Source: Acidimicrobiia bacterium UBA5794
GTDB lineage: Bacteria; Actinomycetota; Acidimicrobiia; Spongiisociales; UBA5794
Assembly: GCA_002418265.1 (NCBI GenBank)
Contig: DIDS01000009.1
Span: forward strand, 58,764 to 122,763
Length of the DNA: 64,000 bases
Reading direction: 5' to 3'
Positions within the stretch are counted from its first letter, which is position 1, and each line of letters starts with the position of its first letter. The translations under genes and the position numbers were made by a program. Under the pieces are notes generated by a model. The model was not told where the DNA came from, made no database searches, and saw only the letters and a program-made list of their open reading frames with translations. Shown piece by piece: positions 2,607-64,000 of this stretch.

Positions 2607-3290
2607 ATGGCAGCGATCCTGATCATCGAGGACGAGCAACGAATCCGCGAATCTCTTGCGAAACGTCTCGCCGAGCGTGGACACGACGTCGAGACCGTCA
2701 CCAATGCCATGGACGGGATCCAACGCGGTATCTCCGGCGATTTTGACGTGGTGATCCTCGACCTGGGACTTCCTGATCTTGATGGCACCGAAGCGCTTCG
2801 AATGATCCGGGCCGTCAGCGACGTGCCCGTCGTTGTCGCAACCGCCCGAGACGACGAAACGGACATCATCGCGGTTCTTGATGCCGGGGCAGACGACTAT
2901 GTTGTCAAGCCCTACTCCGCTGACCATTTGGCAGCGAGGATCCGTGCCGTCATGCGACGCACGTCCGATGCACCGGAAGACCACGTTGTTGTGGTCGGTG
3001 GTCTCCGACTGGATCGGGACAGCCATGAAGTGACACTCGACGGTGTCCCCCTCGAATTGACCGCCCGAGCCTTCGACCTGCTTGCGTACCTGGCGTCGAA
3101 CCCCAACAAGTTGGTGAGCAAGCGCGAACTGATGGCGGAGGTCTGGCATCAACCGTATGGGGGTGCGGACAAGACTGTCGATGTGCACGTCTCCTGGCTG
3201 CGCAAGGCACTCGGCGAAACCGCAACCGAGCCGGTCTACCTCCACACAAAACGCGGTGTCGGTGTCCGACTCGTGGACCCGACGCGGTGA
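2607..3290 (+). CDS. OmpR-family response regulator
   Basis: Receiver domain (IIEDE...VVILDLGLPDLDG, KPY) plus a winged-helix DNA-binding C-terminus (LTARAFDLLAYLASNPNKLVSKRELMAEVW). Overlaps the downstream kinase by 4 bp. Confidence 0.9.
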   Translation: MAAILIIEDEQRIRESLAKRLAERGHDVETVTNAMDGIQRGISGDFDVVILDLGLPDLDGTEALRMIRAVSDVPVVVATARDDETDIIAVLDAGADDYVVKPYSADHLAARIRAVMRRTSDAPEDHVVVVGGLRLDRDSHEVTLDGVPLELTARAFDLLAYLASNPNKLVSKRELMAEVWHQPYGGADKTVDVHVSWLRKALGETATEPVYLHTKRGVGVRLVDPTR

Positions 3291-4591
3291 GACGACGCCT
3301 GATCCTTCTCTCGATTGCCGTCACCGGCATGGTCGTTCTTGCGTTCCTCGTCCCCCTGTTCATCCTTGTCTCGGATCTTGCACGCGACTCGGCCATCTCG
3401 GCTGGTGAGCGCGACGCAGAAAGTCTGGCGCGAGCACTCTCCGTCCTGACCGTAAATGAAGATCTGACGACGGCCCTCGACGTCATCGGTGAGGACCGCA
3501 TTTCCGATGTGAACGGATCCGTCATCCTGCCAAACGGCGACGTCGTCGGAGTACCGCTGTCGGAGGACAACGACGCAGACGAGCAGGACTTGACCCTGGC
3601 CGAGGAAGGAAACTCATTCGTCGCTTCCGTACCGGGAGGTGCGGCCGTCTATGTACCAGTTGTCACGTCGGCCGGCACGGCTGTCGTGCGGGTTCTTGTG
3701 ACCGATGAAAAAATCCATGCCGGCGTAGCTCGGAGTTGGGTGATCCTCGGAACACTCGGGCTCGGGCTTGTCGCTCTTGCGGCCTGGGTGGCGGATCGGC
3801 TCGGACGGTCGATGGTCATCCCTGTCAAGGAGCTGTCAGAGACAGCAGAGCGTCTCGGGGAGGGCGACCTGACCGCCCGTGTCAGTCCAGGGGGACCTCC
3901 AGAGATCGAAGAGGTTGGCCTTGAATTCAATCGTCTCGCGGATCAGATCGGGCGACTGCTCCAAGAAGAACGAGAAACAGCTGCCGATCTGGCACATCGC
4001 CTTCGAACACCGCTCACCGCGGCGCGCCTCACCGTGGATGGTCTCGAGGATTCCTCATACAAGGACCGCCTCGTCTCTGATCTCGACGAGCTCCAGCGAA
4101 CAACGGACTACATCATCCGTGAGGCGAGACGACCGGTCCGCCAGGAAGAGCATGCCTGGTGCGACCTCGGCACGGTTGTTGCAGACCGCGTCCGGTTCTG
4201 GGAACCGCTCGCAACCGAGCAGGAACGCGACATCTCGGTCACCGTCACCGACCTGCCGACACCGGTGTCGGCACCAGCAGTTGATATTGAAACGGCGATC
4301 GATGCACTCATCGAGAACGCGATCTCACACACGCAGCCTGGTATTCCGTTTGGAATCACCGTTTCACGCGTCGGGTCATTCGCACGCTTCGTAATCGAAG
4401 ATGGTGGGCCGGGGCTGCCTGCAGAATTTGAGCTCAAGCGTGGAATGTCTCACGGTGACTCGACCGGACTCGGACTCGACATCGTCAGAAGAACCGTCGA
4501 GTCCGTCGAAGGTGCTCTCTCCATCGGGCGTTCTGAGTTGCTCGGCGGAGTGAGGATCCAACTCGACCTGCCGCTGTCAACGCCGTCCTAA
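3287..4591 (+). CDS. sensor histidine kinase (HAMP/HisKA/HATPase)
   Basis: N-terminal TM segment, H-box HRLRTPLTAARL, and G-boxes GLGLDIVRRTVE in the C-terminus. Translationally coupled to the regulator. Confidence 0.85.
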   Translation: MRRRLILLSIAVTGMVVLAFLVPLFILVSDLARDSAISAGERDAESLARALSVLTVNEDLTTALDVIGEDRISDVNGSVILPNGDVVGVPLSEDNDADEQDLTLAEEGNSFVASVPGGAAVYVPVVTSAGTAVVRVLVTDEKIHAGVARSWVILGTLGLGLVALAAWVADRLGRSMVIPVKELSETAERLGEGDLTARVSPGGPPEIEEVGLEFNRLADQIGRLLQEERETAADLAHRLRTPLTAARLTVDGLEDSSYKDRLVSDLDELQRTTDYIIREARRPVRQEEHAWCDLGTVVADRVRFWEPLATEQERDISVTVTDLPTPVSAPAVDIETAIDALIENAISHTQPGIPFGITVSRVGSFARFVIEDGGPGLPAEFELKRGMSHGDSTGLGLDIVRRTVESVEGALSIGRSELLGGVRIQLDLPLSTPS

Positions 4592-16506: not shown

Positions 16507-17040
16507 TCAGAAGTCAGAAGTCAGACGTCAGAGTCGGTTCAAACCCGTCCCCCCGGTCTTGCGGGGGGACGCGGAGCAACGCATGCACAGCAGGCGCTGC
16601 GTAGCAGGGGGGCGTCCCAGCCTGTCGCAATACCAGAGCCCCCCTGCCCCTCGCTACGCTCGGCGCGTCCCCCCGCAAGCGGGAGGACGGGAGAAGTCAG
16701 AGTCGGTTCTAAACCCGTCCCCCCGGTCTTGCGGGGGGACGCGGAGCAACGCATGCACAGCAGGCGCTGCGTAGCAGGGGGGCGTCCCAGCCTGTCGCAA
16801 TACCAGAGCCCCCCTGCCCCTCGCTACGCTCGGCGCGTCCCCCCGCAAGCGGGAGGACGGGAGAAGTCAGAGTCGGTTCTAAACCCGTCCCCCCGGTCTT
16901 CCGGGGGGACGCGGAGCAACGCATGCACAGCAGGGGTTGCATAGCAGGGGGCGTCCCAGCCTGTCGCAATACCAGAGCCCCCCTGCCCCTCGCTACGCTG
17001 TACTACCCAAACCGTCCGCCTGAAGGGGGGACGGGGGTTG
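16507..17040. repeat. heptamers plus 3 tandem copies of a 170-bp GC-rich hairpin-rich REP/MITE-like element (locus E)
   Basis: tcagaagtcagaagtcagacgtcagagtc, then units starting at 16528, 16697 and 16867 (period 169-170). Contains hairpins gtccccccggtcttgcggggggac and cgtccccccgcaagcgggaggacg. Copy 3 is diverged and supplies the CFA synthase C-terminus. Confidence 0.9.
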
Positions 17041-42930: not shown

Positions 42931-44169
42931 ATGATGCAACGCATTCTGATACTCGGGGCGGGTACGGCAGGCACCATGGCTGCAAATCACCTCCGCAAGG
43001 AACTCGGGTCGGAGTACGAGATCACCATCGTCGATCAGGACGAAACCCACTACTACCAGCCCGGATTCCTCTTCATTCCCTTCGGCACCTATCAGCCTTC
43101 AGACGTGATGAAGCCAACGGCGGACTTCCTTCGCAAGGGAATCTCGCACGTCAACGGTGAGGTGGCATCGCTCGAACCAGCTGCGAACAGGGTCCTGCTC
43201 ACGGATGGACGAACATTTGGCTATGACCACCTGATCATCGCAACCGGCACGCATCCGACGCTGGGAGAAACACCGGGTCTCGACTCGGACGAATACGGCA
43301 AGACGGTGCACGACTTCTTCAGCCTCGAAAGTGCCGTAGCGCTCCAGGAGGCACTCAAGGAATTCAAAGAAGGACGCCTGGTGGTGAGCCTGATCGAAAT
43401 GCCGATCAAGTGCCCGGTCGCACCTCTTGAGTTCGCATTTCTCGCTGATGCGCACTTCACCGATCTCGGGATCCGCGACAAGGTTGAGATCGTCTACGTG
43501 ACTCCCATGAGCAGTGTTTTCACCAAGCCAGTCGCGTCCGAGCAGCTCGGCGACATGTTCGAACAGCGAGGCATTCACCTCGAACCCGACTTCTACCTCG
43601 AGCGAGTCGATGCTGAAGCGAAGATGCTCGTGTCCTACGACGAACGGGAGGTCCCCTACGACCTACTCGTGACAGTGCCCATCAACATGGGAGCCTCGTT
43701 CGTCGGTGCCGCGGGGATCGGTGACGAACTCAACCACGTACGAGTCGATCCTGGGAACTTCCAGTCTCCGGACTATCCGAACATCTTTGCACTTGGCGAT
43801 GCGGCGAGCCTGCCGACATCGAAGGCGGGATCGGTTGCGCACTTTGCAATGGACACGTTCGTCCCGAACTTCGTCGACTACCTGCTTGGGCTTCCCATGA
43901 AGCACGAGTTCGACGGGCACGCAAACTGCTACATCGAGACCGGGCACGACAAGGCAATGCTGATCGACTTCAACTACAAGACCCAGCCACTTCCGGGAAA
44001 GTACCCGGTGCCGGGAATCGGACCCTTCTCTCTCCTTGAGGAGTCGAAGGTCAATCACCGAGGCAAGCTCGCATTCCGATGGATGTACTGGAACCTGCTC
44101 CTTCCCGGTCGGCATCTCCCCGTATCGAGCGAGATGTCAATGGCAGGCAAGGACACCGATCTCGCATGA
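42931..44169 (+). CDS. sqr: sulfide:quinone oxidoreductase (SQR, FAD-dependent)
   Basis: GAGTAGT FAD fold. SQR cysteine blocks IKCPVAPLEFAF and GHANCYIETG, FALGDAAS. Start MMQRILILG after gaaagga. Confidence 0.8.
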   Translation: MMQRILILGAGTAGTMAANHLRKELGSEYEITIVDQDETHYYQPGFLFIPFGTYQPSDVMKPTADFLRKGISHVNGEVASLEPAANRVLLTDGRTFGYDHLIIATGTHPTLGETPGLDSDEYGKTVHDFFSLESAVALQEALKEFKEGRLVVSLIEMPIKCPVAPLEFAFLADAHFTDLGIRDKVEIVYVTPMSSVFTKPVASEQLGDMFEQRGIHLEPDFYLERVDAEAKMLVSYDEREVPYDLLVTVPINMGASFVGAAGIGDELNHVRVDPGNFQSPDYPNIFALGDAASLPTSKAGSVAHFAMDTFVPNFVDYLLGLPMKHEFDGHANCYIETGHDKAMLIDFNYKTQPLPGKYPVPGIGPFSLLEESKVNHRGKLAFRWMYWNLLLPGRHLPVSSEMSMAGKDTDLA

Positions 44170-44211
44170 CCACACGGTGCGTGCGACAAGAACTGAATCA
44201 ATGGAGGAACC

Positions 44212-44529
44212 ATGCCGACCACAGCAATCGCTGATAAAGAAATCCATGTCGACGCAGAAGGATTCATGACCGAATACGACGAGTGGGACGAAGATCTCGC
44301 TCGCATCCTGGCATCCAACATCGGCATCGACGAACTCACCGAAGCCCACTGGTCGGTGCTCAACTTCCTGCGAGCCGACTACGCCGAGCGGGGCGAGACC
44401 CCGACTCTGCGTCGGGTGTCGGCCACCGGAGGCGTTCCGACCAAGGAACTGTTCGTGCTATTCCCGAAGAAGCCAGCACGCAAGATGGCGTATGTGGCCG
44501 GTCTGCCAAAGCCCGTCGGCTGCATCTGA
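44212..44529 (+). CDS. TusE/DsrC-family sulfur-relay protein
   Basis: 105 aa with the characteristic C-terminal arm ...AGLPKPVGCI and the LNFLRADYAERGETPTLRRV helix region. Confidence 0.6.
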   Translation: MPTTAIADKEIHVDAEGFMTEYDEWDEDLARILASNIGIDELTEAHWSVLNFLRADYAERGETPTLRRVSATGGVPTKELFVLFPKKPARKMAYVAGLPKPVGCI

Positions 44530-44547
44530 CAATCGAAAGGAGACACC

Positions 44548-45060
44548 ATGACAGCCACCGAGACCGCCCCGATGGTCGTTCCGGATTTTGGAGACGAGAA
44601 CGAGAGTCGCAAGATTGCGTTCGTGTGCTCAAAGGGCACCCTCGACATGGCCTACCCCGCGCTGATCATGGCGTCTGGTGCTCTGGAACAGGGCATCGAG
44701 ACACACATCTTCTTCACGTTCTGGGGCATGGACATGATCAACAAAAAGACGATGAATGATCTCAAGTTCACGCCTGTCGGGAACACCGCGACACACATGC
44801 CGATGGCTCTCACACCCTTGCCGGGTATGACTGCGATGGCAACGAGTCGGATGCGCAAGCAGTTACAGGAACTCGACATCCCCGATGTCCCTGCATTCCT
44901 TACGCATCTCTCCGACATGGGGTGCCATCTGTGGGCATGCAAGATGTCCGTCGACATGTTCGACCTTGAACGAGATGACATGATGGACGAACTCGACGGG
45001 ATCCTCAACGTGAGCGACTTCATCGAGCTCATCGAGGGCGCCCAGACGATGTTCATCTAG
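44548..45060 (+). CDS. DsrE/DsrF-like family protein
   Basis: KIAFVCSKGTLDMAYPALIMA N-terminal active-site Cys context. 170 aa. Confidence 0.6.
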   Translation: MTATETAPMVVPDFGDENESRKIAFVCSKGTLDMAYPALIMASGALEQGIETHIFFTFWGMDMINKKTMNDLKFTPVGNTATHMPMALTPLPGMTAMATSRMRKQLQELDIPDVPAFLTHLSDMGCHLWACKMSVDMFDLERDDMMDELDGILNVSDFIELIEGAQTMFI

Positions 45061-45087
45061 GTATTCGATTGGTCTCTGCGAATCGAG

Positions 45088-45705
45088 CTACGAGCCTGTG
45101 GCTGCGTATTCGATCTGGCAGAAGCCGTGGTTGCAGTAGCCGCCAGGATTCTTTGCAAGGTACTGCTGGTGATATTCCTCGGCATAGTAAAAAGGTCCAG
45201 CTTCGGCGATCTCCGTGGTGATGGTGCCATAGCCTGACTCCGTCAGCCCTGCTTGGTACGCCCCCATCGAGGCGACAGCGACATCTCGTTGCGCAGGATC
45301 GGTCCAGTAGATCGCTGATCGATACTGCGTTCCACGGTCGTTTCCCTGTTGGTTCAGCGTTGTCGGGTCGTGTTGTTCCCAAAAGTGCTTCAGCAAGATT
45401 TCGAACTCGATCTGGGTCGGGTCGTAGACCACAAGGGCCACCTCGGCGTGACCTGTCGCGCCGGAGCAGACCTCTTCGTAGGTCGGGTTCGGTGTGATGC
45501 CGCCCTGATATCCGACGGCCGTCGTGATGACACCAGGCAGTGACCAAAAGATGCGTTCGGCACCCCAAAAGCAACCCATACCGAAGGACACAACCTGAGA
45601 TCCTTCTGGGAACGGTGGGGTCATCGAGGACTCGTTCACAAAGTGGATGCCGCTGATGGAGAGCGGCTCATCCCGTCCCGGCAGGGCTGTGTCGCGCGTT
45701 GGCAT
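45088..45705 (-). CDS. msrA: peptide methionine sulfoxide reductase MsrA
   Basis: GMGCFWGAE active site and an E. coli-type N-terminal extension (ALPGR...HFVNESSMT). Start codon uncertain (45705 or 45729). Confidence 0.85.
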
Positions 45706-51956: not shown

Positions 51957-52229
51957 CGGTCAGACATCAGACATCAGACGGCCCCCCTGCGGAGCAGCGC
52001 CTGCTGCGCAGGCGTTGCTCCGCGTCCCCCCGGTAGCCGGGGGGACGGGAAAAAGTCCAACACCGTCCTCCCGCTTGCGGGGGGACGCGCCGAGCGCAGC
52101 GAGGAGCAGGGGGGCTTCCGACGTCTGACCTCTGGAAGACGGGGCTCGCAGGCTCGCACGCCCCCCTGATTCGACTACGTAGGATTAGTCCCTCCTGAAG
52201 GGGGGACGGGAGATCGGAAGATCTCGAAG
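51957..52229. repeat. heptamers plus composite REP/MITE-like element (locus M)
   Basis: cagacatcagacatcagacg, then a copy related to locus L, then a reverse-complement copy of the 114-bp unit of locus N (tcctcccgcttgcggggggacgcgccgagcgcagcgaggagcaggggggcttccgacgtc; ggaagacggggctcgcaggctcgcacgccc). Confidence 0.9.
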
Positions 52230-59482: not shown

Positions 59483-59810
59483 ATCTGACGTCAGACAACC
59501 CTGATCTGTCCCCCCGCAAGCGGGAGGACGGGAAGAGGGCGTGCGAGCCTGCGAGCCCCGTCTTCCAGCGGGGGACAGATTCGACGTCGGAAGCCCCCCT
59601 GCCCCTCGCTGCGCTCCTCGCGTCCCCCCGCAAGCGGGAGGACGGGAAGAGGGCGTGCGAGCCTGCGAGCCCCGTCTTCCAGCGGGGGACAGATTCGACG
59701 TCGGAAGCCCCCCTGCCCCTCGCTGCGCTCGGCGCGTCCCCCCGCAAGCGGGGGGACGGGAAGAAAAGGCGACGTCAGAAGCTGAAAGCCGGAAGCTGAA
59801 AGCTCCTAAG
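59483..59810. repeat. heptamer plus 2.3 tandem copies of a 114-bp REP/MITE-like unit plus GCTGAAAGC motifs (locus N)
   Basis: Units start at 59508, 59622 and 59736 (period 114). The core ttcgacgtcggaagcccccctgcccctcgctgcgctc-gcgtccccccgcaagcgggaggacgggaag is shared with locus E. The element ends with gacgtcagaagctgaaagccggaagctgaaagctc. Confidence 0.9.
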
Positions 59811-61633: not shown

Positions 61634-63457
61634 ATGCCACCCGATGTCGCCACACTTGCTGAGCTGTACGCACAGAGCGTCGCAGCGTTCCCTGACAACC
61701 CGTTGTTCGGGCAGCGAACGCCAGACGGATCGTGGGAGTGGATCACCTACCGGGAATTCGGTGAGGCAATCGACAAGGCCCGCGGCGGTCTGGCATCTCT
61801 GGGTGTTTCGAGCGGTGACAAGGTCGCGATCATCTCTGACAACCGACCCGAGTGGGCTGTTGGTGCCTACGCCACCTACAGCCTCGGGGCAGCATGGGTG
61901 CCGATGTACGAGGCGCAGACCCAGAAGGACTGGAAGTTCATCCTGAACGACTCAGGAGCAAAGGTTGTGTTTGTGGCGACCGACGGCATTCGTGCCCAGG
62001 TTGAGGAGATTCAAGACGAGATCGACACGCTTGAGACCATCGTCGTCATCGATGACCCCGCCGGTGGCAACGCATTGGACTACCTTGAACTCCTTGCACG
62101 GGGTAGCGAAAACCCAGCAACTGCAGCTGTCGTTCGGCCAGAAGATCTTGCCGGGCTCATCTACACATCCGGTACCACCGGAAATCCGAAGGGCGTGATG
62201 CTCTCGCACTCGAACATCACATCGAACCTGAACGCCGTCGCTGAAATCTTTCCGCTTGAGGAAGAAGATCGTTCCGCTTCGTTCCTACCGTGGGCACACT
62301 CGTTCGGGCAAACCGTTGAACTTCATGCATTGATCTTCTTCGGTTCATCAACAGGGTTGACCAGCGCAAAGACCCTGATTCGTGACATGCCCGAAATCAA
62401 GCCGACACTGCTGGTTGCGGTCCCTACCGTGTTCAACAAGGTCTACGACGGCTTGAACAAGCTCATGGCGTCCGAAGGTGGCATCAAGCAGAAGATGTTT
62501 GAGGCTGCGATGGCGAATGCTCAAAAGCGCAGCGAGATGGCCAAGCGTGGTGCAACGAGCCGGATGGTCGAGATCAAACATGGGCTCTTCGACAAGCTCG
62601 TGTTCTCCAAGGTGAGGGATCGATTCGGCGGAAAGCTCAGGTATGCATTCTCTGGCGGTGCCGCCATCTCAACGGAGGTGGCCGAGTTCATTTCCGCTGT
62701 CGGCATCGTGGTGTATGAGGGCTACGGGCTGACGGAGACCAGCCCGATCGCCACCTGCAACGTGAAGGGTGCACGGAAGGTCGGTTCCGTCGGGCGGGCA
62801 ATTCCGAAGGTGACCATCACGATCGATACCGATATCACCGGTGACAAGGAGATCGGCGAGATCATTGTTCACGGCCCGAACGTGATGATGGGCTACTACA
62901 ACCTCCCTGAAGCAAACGATGAGGTCTTCACCGGAGACGGCGGGTTTCGAACCGGTGACCTTGGACGCTTGGACTCTGAAGGTTATCTCTACATCCGGGG
63001 ACGTATCAAAGAGCAATACAAGCTTGAGAATGGCAAGTACGTAGTTCCCTCGCCGATCGAGGAAGCCCTGACGCTGTCGGGCTACATCTCGCAGGCGATG
63101 GTGTATGGAGAGCAACGTCCGTTCAATGTCGCAGTTGTCATTCCTGACTTTGAATACCTCGACAAGTGGGCGGCGGAGAATGGGCTGGGCGGATCCTCCC
63201 ATGCTGATCTCGTCAAGAACGAACGAGTGATCGAACTGTTCAAGACCGAGATCAACCGCGCACAGAGCGACATCAAGCACTACGAGCGTGTGCGGGACTT
63301 CATCCTCGGAACCGAGGAATGGACACCCGAAGGTGGCATGTTGACGCCGTCGCTCAAGATCAAGCGTCGAACGATCATGACCGAGTTTGGGAACCAGATC
63401 AATGACCTGTACGAAGGCGACGACCCCCTCCTCGGCCGGGACACACAAACGCGGTAG
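61634..63457 (+). CDS. fadD: long-chain-fatty-acid--CoA ligase (AMP-dependent synthetase)
   Basis: AMP-binding motif LIYTSGTTGNPKGVMLSH, YGLTETSP, and C-terminal PSLKIKRR. Confidence 0.85.
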   Translation: MPPDVATLAELYAQSVAAFPDNPLFGQRTPDGSWEWITYREFGEAIDKARGGLASLGVSSGDKVAIISDNRPEWAVGAYATYSLGAAWVPMYEAQTQKDWKFILNDSGAKVVFVATDGIRAQVEEIQDEIDTLETIVVIDDPAGGNALDYLELLARGSENPATAAVVRPEDLAGLIYTSGTTGNPKGVMLSHSNITSNLNAVAEIFPLEEEDRSASFLPWAHSFGQTVELHALIFFGSSTGLTSAKTLIRDMPEIKPTLLVAVPTVFNKVYDGLNKLMASEGGIKQKMFEAAMANAQKRSEMAKRGATSRMVEIKHGLFDKLVFSKVRDRFGGKLRYAFSGGAAISTEVAEFISAVGIVVYEGYGLTETSPIATCNVKGARKVGSVGRAIPKVTITIDTDITGDKEIGEIIVHGPNVMMGYYNLPEANDEVFTGDGGFRTGDLGRLDSEGYLYIRGRIKEQYKLENGKYVVPSPIEEALTLSGYISQAMVYGEQRPFNVAVVIPDFEYLDKWAAENGLGGSSHADLVKNERVIELFKTEINRAQSDIKHYERVRDFILGTEEWTPEGGMLTPSLKIKRRTIMTEFGNQINDLYEGDDPLLGRDTQTR

Positions 63458-63482
63458 TCGAGCCACGCTCGACCACTGCTCG

Positions 63483-63574
63483 CGGAGGCGGACGGGAATC
63501 GAACCCGCCAGGGAACTTTCGCCCCCTCGTCGGTTTTGAAGACCGCGACGTCCACCAGGCACGCAGTCGCCTCC
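63483..63574 (-). tRNA. selC: candidate tRNA-Sec (selC), anticodon UCA
   Basis: The reverse complement reads GGAGGCG-AC-...GGTCTTCAAAACCG...GGCGGGTTCGATTCCCGTCCGCCTCC-G. It has a 7-bp acceptor stem, a T-loop GGTTCGATTCC, a 7-nt anticodon loop CUUCAAA identical to E. coli tRNA-Sec, a long variable arm and is 92 nt in total. CCA is not encoded. Hand-folded only. Confidence 0.55.
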
Positions 63575-63623
63575 ATCCGGCAATGGTAGGGAACCATCAG
63601 GGGCCCAGGCACGGCGTCCTTGC

Positions 63624-64000
63624 CTAATTGTCGTCCCCGTCTGGTTTGGAATCGAAGCTCGGCAGGGAAAGGACCAGCAACTCAATCTTCCCGGTCTTGC
63701 AGTTGACTCTTCCCGTTCCAGAGACAACATCACCGTCCTCATTGCGCGCCGTAAGACCGAAGCCGACGAGGCGGTCGCCGGTACCGCCGTGATATCTCTG
63801 TGTTTCGAAGGTCAGCCGCAGGCCGTCGGCGAACCGCGAGTCAAGGTAGCTCAACAGCGTGCCGCGGATGCGCGCTGCCTCGCGCACCCGAAATGGCGGC
63901 TCCGTGTATCCGACGAAACCGGCTGTCGCGAACAGTGCGTCGGCGGACGAGGCGTCACCGTCGGACGTCGCCGTGAGGAATGCCGTCACGAGGCCCTCAG
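63624..64000 (-). CDS. hypothetical protein, 5'-truncated by the window edge
   Basis: The frame stays open to the window end. The last 121 aa (…GTGRVNCKTGKIELLVLSLPSFDSKPDGDDN) match no recognised family. It lies immediately upstream of, and co-oriented with, the candidate selC. Confidence 0.35.
   Translation of the reverse strand, partial: EGLVTAFLTATSDGDASSADALFATAGFVGYTEPPFRVREAARIRGTLLSYLDSRFADGLRLTFETQRYHGGTGDRLVGFGLTARNEDGDVVSGTGRVNCKTGKIELLVLSLPSFDSKPDGDDN

Follow-up and report, generated by a model that had tools for sequence, protein, structure and literature searches.

We find that a 92-nt gene on the minus strand at 63483-63574 of the 64-kb window (the whole stretch of DNA that was analysed) is very probably a functional selC gene, encoding a tRNA-Sec of the 7/6 type in an uncultured member of the Actinomycetota. 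The minus-strand sequence, GGAGGCGACUGCGUGCCUGGUGGACGUCGCGGUCUUCAAAACCGACGAGGGGGCGAAAGUUCCCUGGCGGGUUCGAUUCCCGUCCGCCUCCG, runs from G1 at 63574 to the discriminator G73 at 63483, and the CCA end is not encoded. Two independent detectors recognize the gene. ARAGORN calls a tRNA-SeC (tca) at 63482-63574(-), the sole tRNA across the 64-kb window, and the Rfam tRNA-Sec family RF01852, likewise the sole family detected within the window, matches 63484-63574(-) over model positions 1-91 of 91 with 69.6 bits (E 3.8e-12), the gathering score of the family being 47 bits. A first-pass annotation had proposed a tRNA-Sec with anticodon UCA and had named ARAGORN as a check; the SeC call with its tca anticodon bears out that proposal, as do the RF01852 match, the covariation, G73, the 13-layer domain and the 6-bp D-stem described below. 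Upon inspection of the sequence its coordinates, strand, length, T-arm, anticodon loop and 7-bp acceptor stem were all right, and the variable arm that it put at about 20 nt is present as an 18-nt stem-loop. This selC is an ordinary member of a well-known family, found by standard tools.

The acceptor stem comprises seven Watson-Crick pairs (tRNA positions 1-7 with 85-91, GGAGGCG/CGCCUCC). In layer 8, A8 lies opposite C84 and forms no standard pair with it. Following the reading of PMC13449736, C84 pairs with G66 rather than with A8, giving a T-stem of six pairs (66-71 with 79-84: G66-C84, G67-U83, C68-G82, G69-C81, G70-C80 and G71-C79) in a T-arm that includes GGTTCGATTCC. Stacked on each other, the acceptor and T stems add up to 7 + 6 = 13 layers, and a 13-bp acceptor/T domain, as opposed to the 12 bp of ordinary tRNAs, is a hallmark of tRNA-Sec (PMC5330540). 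The D-stem has 6 bp, formed by positions 11-14 and 16-17 with 22-27 with G15 bulged out, and closes a 4-nt loop, UGGU; a 6-bp D-stem with a 4-nt loop and G73 are both features of tRNA-Sec (PMC5330540), and G73 serves as an identity element for SerRS as well as for SelA (PMC5330540, PMC13449736). The anticodon stem (28-33 with 41-47, A45 bulged) carries the 7-nt loop CUUCAAA, in which the anticodon UCA (36-38) is preceded by U and followed by A. This loop is unchanged across 22 aligned relatives and, as the first-pass annotation had remarked, matches the loop of E. coli K-12 selC base for base. The long variable arm pairs 48-54 with 59-65 in a 7-bp stem capped by a GAAA tetraloop, 18 nt in total.

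A 7/6 tRNA-Sec with 13 stacked pairs and the 5' end GGAGGCG was recently reported for mycobacteria (PMC13449736), and because this variant still gives 13 stacked pairs, the 7-bp acceptor stem of the window tRNA is no defect. The likeness to the mycobacterial/actinobacterial type extends to the 7-bp GGAGGCG acceptor, the 6-bp T-stem GGCGGG/CCCGUC, the 13-bp domain, the 6-bp D-stem, the long variable arm and G73, and the acceptor and T-arm sequences of the Mycobacterium interjectum tRNA-Sec are identical to those of the window. On the other hand, the host comes from another, uncultured lineage of actinobacteria, the window tRNA has A at position 8 where U is commoner, and whereas mycobacterial selC sits with selA-selB (PMC13449736), the window selC is a single gene next to fadD and the surrounding ~82 kb hold no sel genes. 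With E. coli selC, which is of the 8/5 type, the window tRNA shares the CUUCAAA loop, G73, 13 stacked pairs, the 6-bp D-stem with its 4-nt loop and the long variable arm; E. coli selC is likewise solitary, away from selAB and selD. The two differ in that E. coli forms eight Watson-Crick acceptor pairs and five T pairs, whereas in the window A8 faces C84, which can pair with G66 to yield 7/6, and in that the window tRNA has the bulges G15 in the D-stem and A45 in the anticodon stem and lacks an encoded CCA. The 12-bp (7/5) bacterial tRNA-Sec variants known from Secmarker (PMC5330540) have 12 acceptor/T pairs compared to the 13 seen here.

How widespread is this design? Scanning one genome per species with the anticodon arm and T-arm as query returned at least 120 loci, and ARAGORN finds a tRNA-Sec in 116 of 120 among the matches listed. 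The closest tRNAs among these matches come from uncultured Actinomycetes (L010, 89%) and Acidimicrobiia (L026, 86%), followed by Nonomuraea, Streptomyces and Pseudonocardia. Taking the matches listed together with the window, only about 20 of 117 tRNAs have a standard 8:84 pair; the state of the window, A8/G66/C84, is found in 13 of the 117, and U8/G66/C84 in another 39 among the matches listed. The 19-nt length of linker plus D-arm, bulge included, is likewise the majority state among the matches listed, and G is the discriminator both of the window tRNA and of all 116 readable comparison tRNAs among them. Seven Watson-Crick acceptor pairs together with two bulges could be taken for the marks of a pseudogene. 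We rejected this reading, given that these apparent signs of decay are the majority state among the actinobacterial tRNA-Sec compared, seen also in PMC13449736 and PMC5330540, and are therefore the normal design of the clade. The comparison suggests that the 7/6 fold, so far known from mycobacteria, predominates among the tRNA-Sec of the Actinomycetota as a whole and is present in some Alphaproteobacteria as well.

The gene lies convergent to a fadD-like gene for an AMP-binding acyl-CoA synthetase (61634-63457, plus strand; Pfam PF00501 and PF23562). Searching metagenomes with the FadD protein yielded 80 related loci. In 30 of these, with FadD 60-85% identical, ARAGORN finds a tRNA-Sec (tca) that lies downstream of fadD and runs against it. 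At FadD identities of 70% or more, selC directly adjoins fadD in nearly all loci, the exception being L191 with the two genes ~1.6 kb apart; below 70% identity selC lies 1-6 kb from fadD. Thus fadD is a conserved neighbour of selC, which implies no functional link between the two. In one close relative, L135 (FadD at 82% identity), no tRNA-Sec comes after fadD; at 2928-4098 of this locus a hairpin leads directly into an oppositely oriented gene, showing that selC is open to loss or relocation. AMP-binding genes of only ~30% identity also adjoin selC in several Actinomycetes (L020, L123, L094, L011, L074 and L064), some of these loci having selD, selA or selB nearby.

The tRNAs of the relatives are 86-99% identical to that of the window, whereas the 70 nt upstream and the 60 nt downstream fail to align. 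Within the tRNA, covariation was assessed on 22 distinct related sequences over 32 pairs, with five measures and 500 shuffles. In this set 98.6% of cells are paired, compared to 44-54% when partners are slid by 1-3 columns, and no shuffle (0 of 500) matches the real alignment on any of the five measures. Double-sided compensatory changes occur in 11 of the 32 pairs, among them U33-A41 to A-U, G29-C46 to A-U, C6-G86 to U-A and A48-U65 to U-A or G-C; four pairs of the variable-arm stem and four of the D-stem change in this manner. The D-stem is 100% paired and its bulge at position 15 is present in 22 of 22 sequences. RNAalifold, applied to the 22 relatives, independently arrives at the same five helices, including the 7-bp acceptor stem and the 6-bp T-stem, and the seven acceptor and six T pairs are 100% paired in the 22 sequences. 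Sequence variation among these relatives spares the whole T-stem and the greater part of the acceptor stem, and because it is invariant, G66-C84 itself has no covariation support either way. High identity of the tRNA between diverged flanks, together with compensatory pair changes, indicates that selC is functional and under purifying selection.

Six more distant loci, with FadD ~62% identical, carry tRNA-Sec genes of a different build, with the T-arm CGGGG/CCCUG: L156 (4131-4227), L158 (14438-14534), L183 (17403-17496), L197 (2052-2147), L164 (5004-5096) and L165 (5928-6020). They lack G66-C84 and come to 7 + 5 pairs if one leaves aside the further pair in the ARAGORN drawing, between the nominal G73 and an extra 5' C. 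In this they resemble the 12-bp acceptor/T class (PMC5330540). In L164 and L165 the anticodon loop reads CUUCAAC instead of CUUCAAA.

Does the genome that holds this tRNA also decode UGA as selenocysteine? Gene calls with Pfam assignments span the window in full together with flanks of 10 kb on the left and ~8 kb on the right (~82 kb of a 2.73-Mb contig), and in these ~82 kb around selC we find no selA, selB, selD or formate dehydrogenase (molybdopterin) gene. Likewise, tblastn with E. coli SelA, SelB, SelD and FdhF gives no match in the window or in L001. Immediately upstream of selC lies an ORF of 236 aa, of which the window holds the 3' part (63624-64000, minus strand) and L002 and L003 the full length. 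The first-pass annotation had thought that this ORF, truncated at the edge, may belong to a Sec locus; that suggestion does not hold up, as the ORF has no Pfam family and no homologue in the 80 FadD-related loci or the at least 120 tRNA-Sec loci, that is, near selC in at least 200 other loci. Further to the right follow genes for a ferredoxin, a CBS-domain protein, an enoyl-CoA hydratase, a solute-binding protein, amidohydrolases and a urocanase. A scan for ORF pairs joined by one TGA showed no window gene convincingly split by an in-frame TGA; the joined pairs that it returned, such as PNP_UDP_1/DsbA and DsrC/DsrE-like, are chance coincidences of frame, each partner being a complete domain protein alone. 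Sulfur and redox genes cluster at ~42934-45591 of the window: they encode a Pyr_redox_2 flavoprotein, DsrC, a DsrE-like protein (PF13686) and, on the opposite strand, MsrA, all of them called as complete Cys-type proteins without in-frame TGA.

On these grounds one could argue that selC is an orphan or relic, its genome being devoid of SelA, SelB, SelD and selenoproteins and the tRNA idle or decaying. No sel or selenoprotein gene is seen within ~82 kb, L135 shows the fadD site without selC, and Sec use has been gained and lost often in bacteria (PMC1794560). We nevertheless consider such a state improbable, given that every identity element of the tRNA is intact and that a tRNA 86-99% identical between diverged flanks, with compensatory changes, speaks of continuing selection and not of decay. 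A selC apart from the sel genes is unremarkable, because in E. coli, too, the genes are spread over three loci, one each for selC, selAB and selD; among the matches listed, sel genes lie within a few kb at about one quarter of the other tRNA-Sec loci, which is not so here. Still less probable, in our estimate, is that this lineage keeps a conserved solitary selC beside fadD in genomes without SelA and SelB, for a role of the tRNA other than Sec insertion. Given that genomes with the Sec-decoding trait are recognized by their selC and selB (PMC1273633), a functional selC makes it reasonable to infer that the genome would hold a selA/selB/selD system and at least one selenoprotein.

A further alternative concerns the identity of the tRNA rather than its company. 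The gene might encode an allo-tRNA of the 8/4 or 9/3 type, a Cys-accepting selC-like tRNA, or an opal suppressor derived from tRNA-Ser and reading UGA without SelB; such tRNAs surface in searches for tRNA-Sec (PMC5389517), and the long variable arm resembles that of tRNA-Ser. Allo-tRNAs have a 12-bp acceptor/T branch with a lengthened acceptor and a shortened T-stem (PMC5389517), compared to which the window tRNA has 13 layers, an acceptor of 7 bp and a T-stem of 6 bp. Moreover, G73 and the 6-bp D-stem with its 4-nt loop are features of tRNA-Sec (PMC5330540), and the window tRNA groups with the tRNA-Sec genes that stand beside selA, selB and selD in Streptomyces, Pseudonocardia, Nonomuraea and Mycobacterium. 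A look-alike of this kind is therefore highly unlikely. Finally, although GC-rich DNA folds readily and the single-sequence fold of the tRNA reaches a z of only -2.7, the Rfam E value of 3.8e-12 and the conserved, covarying structure in 30 syntenic relatives leave almost no room for a chance cloverleaf in GC-rich intergenic DNA.

The flanks of selC hold probable signals for its expression. A candidate -10 hexamer of the TAnnnT type, TACCAT, lies at 63583-63588 on the minus strand, its last T 9 nt before the mature 5' end. In the window, as in 15 of 15 relatives with upstream sequence, a TAnnnT hexamer (TACGCT, TACCCT, TAGGTT, TAATCT, TAGCCT, TAGCGT or TACCAT) precedes the tRNA by 8-11 nt, the remaining upstream region being unalignable. 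The TAnnnT pattern fits the actinobacterial -10 consensus, and TACCAT is probably the -10 promoter element of selC. Beyond the gene, 6 nt past the 3' end of the tRNA, a GC-rich 10-bp hairpin at 63454-63476 on the minus strand (GUGGUCGAGC-GUG-GCUCGACUAC, then CGCGUUUGUGUGU) overlaps the fadD stop codon (63455-63457) and folds with -19.1 kcal/mol and a z of -2.7. Most relatives have analogous hairpins of different sequence after the tRNA, and the hairpin probably acts as a terminator between the convergent selC and fadD. An E. coli-type sigma-70 promoter scan found nothing for selC, and a strict terminator scan did not call the hairpin because its T-run is weak; the two assignments rest therefore on the comparison of relatives and on folding.

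Other copies of the locus are at hand. The window is base-for-base identical to the JGI metagenome contig Ga0119857_1000137 and to Logan contigs, and nearly identical to the 2.73-Mb contig JAOSJN010000001.1 of the MAG GCA_027494075.1. A difference of 1.7 kb between that MAG and the window was considered as an island targeted to selC and rejected, as it is a plain IS element. The element, 1700 bp in length (11995-13694 of L001, the NCBI MAG copy), is inserted between window positions 63627 and 63628, 53 nt upstream of selC; neither the window nor the JGI and Logan contigs carry it. Terminal inverted repeats of 15 bp (CCCCGATTCTTCACG / CGTGAATAATCGGGG) and a CTAA target duplication mark its ends, and its DDE_Tnp_1_4 transposase (PF13701) is split by a frameshift. 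As the element sits just upstream of the would-be -35 position, it could influence the transcription of selC in that strain or leave it unchanged. The region also contains a GC-rich intergenic repeat of ~100-147 nt, with copies 88-96% identical at 52064-52210, 59537-59644, 59651-59758, 16637-16689 and 16807-16859 of the window and at 16264-16410 of L001; two copies form a tandem whose period is 114 nt, and 170 nt separate two partial copies. The repeat could represent a small dispersed element or one akin to a MITE.

Taken as a functional tRNA-Sec gene, selC would be transcribed from its own TAnnnT promoter a few nt upstream, and transcription would end at the hairpin shared with fadD. The CCA end would be added post-transcriptionally, and SerRS would serylate the tRNA by way of G73 and the long arm. 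SelA, recognizing the D-arm, would then turn Ser into Sec with selenophosphate supplied by SelD, and SelB, recognizing the 13-bp acceptor/T helix, would bring Sec-tRNA to UGA codons that are followed by a SECIS hairpin (for the SerRS, SelA, SelD and SelB steps see PMC5330540, PMC13449736 and PMC1273633). On this model selA, selB, selD and one or more selenoprotein genes would have to sit elsewhere in the 2.7-Mb genome.

The selC gene thus marks this uncultured actinobacterium, and a lineage of relatives from sediment and wastewater, as probable users of selenocysteine. It adds non-mycobacterial examples of the 7/6 tRNA-Sec fold, and otherwise matters little beyond annotation.
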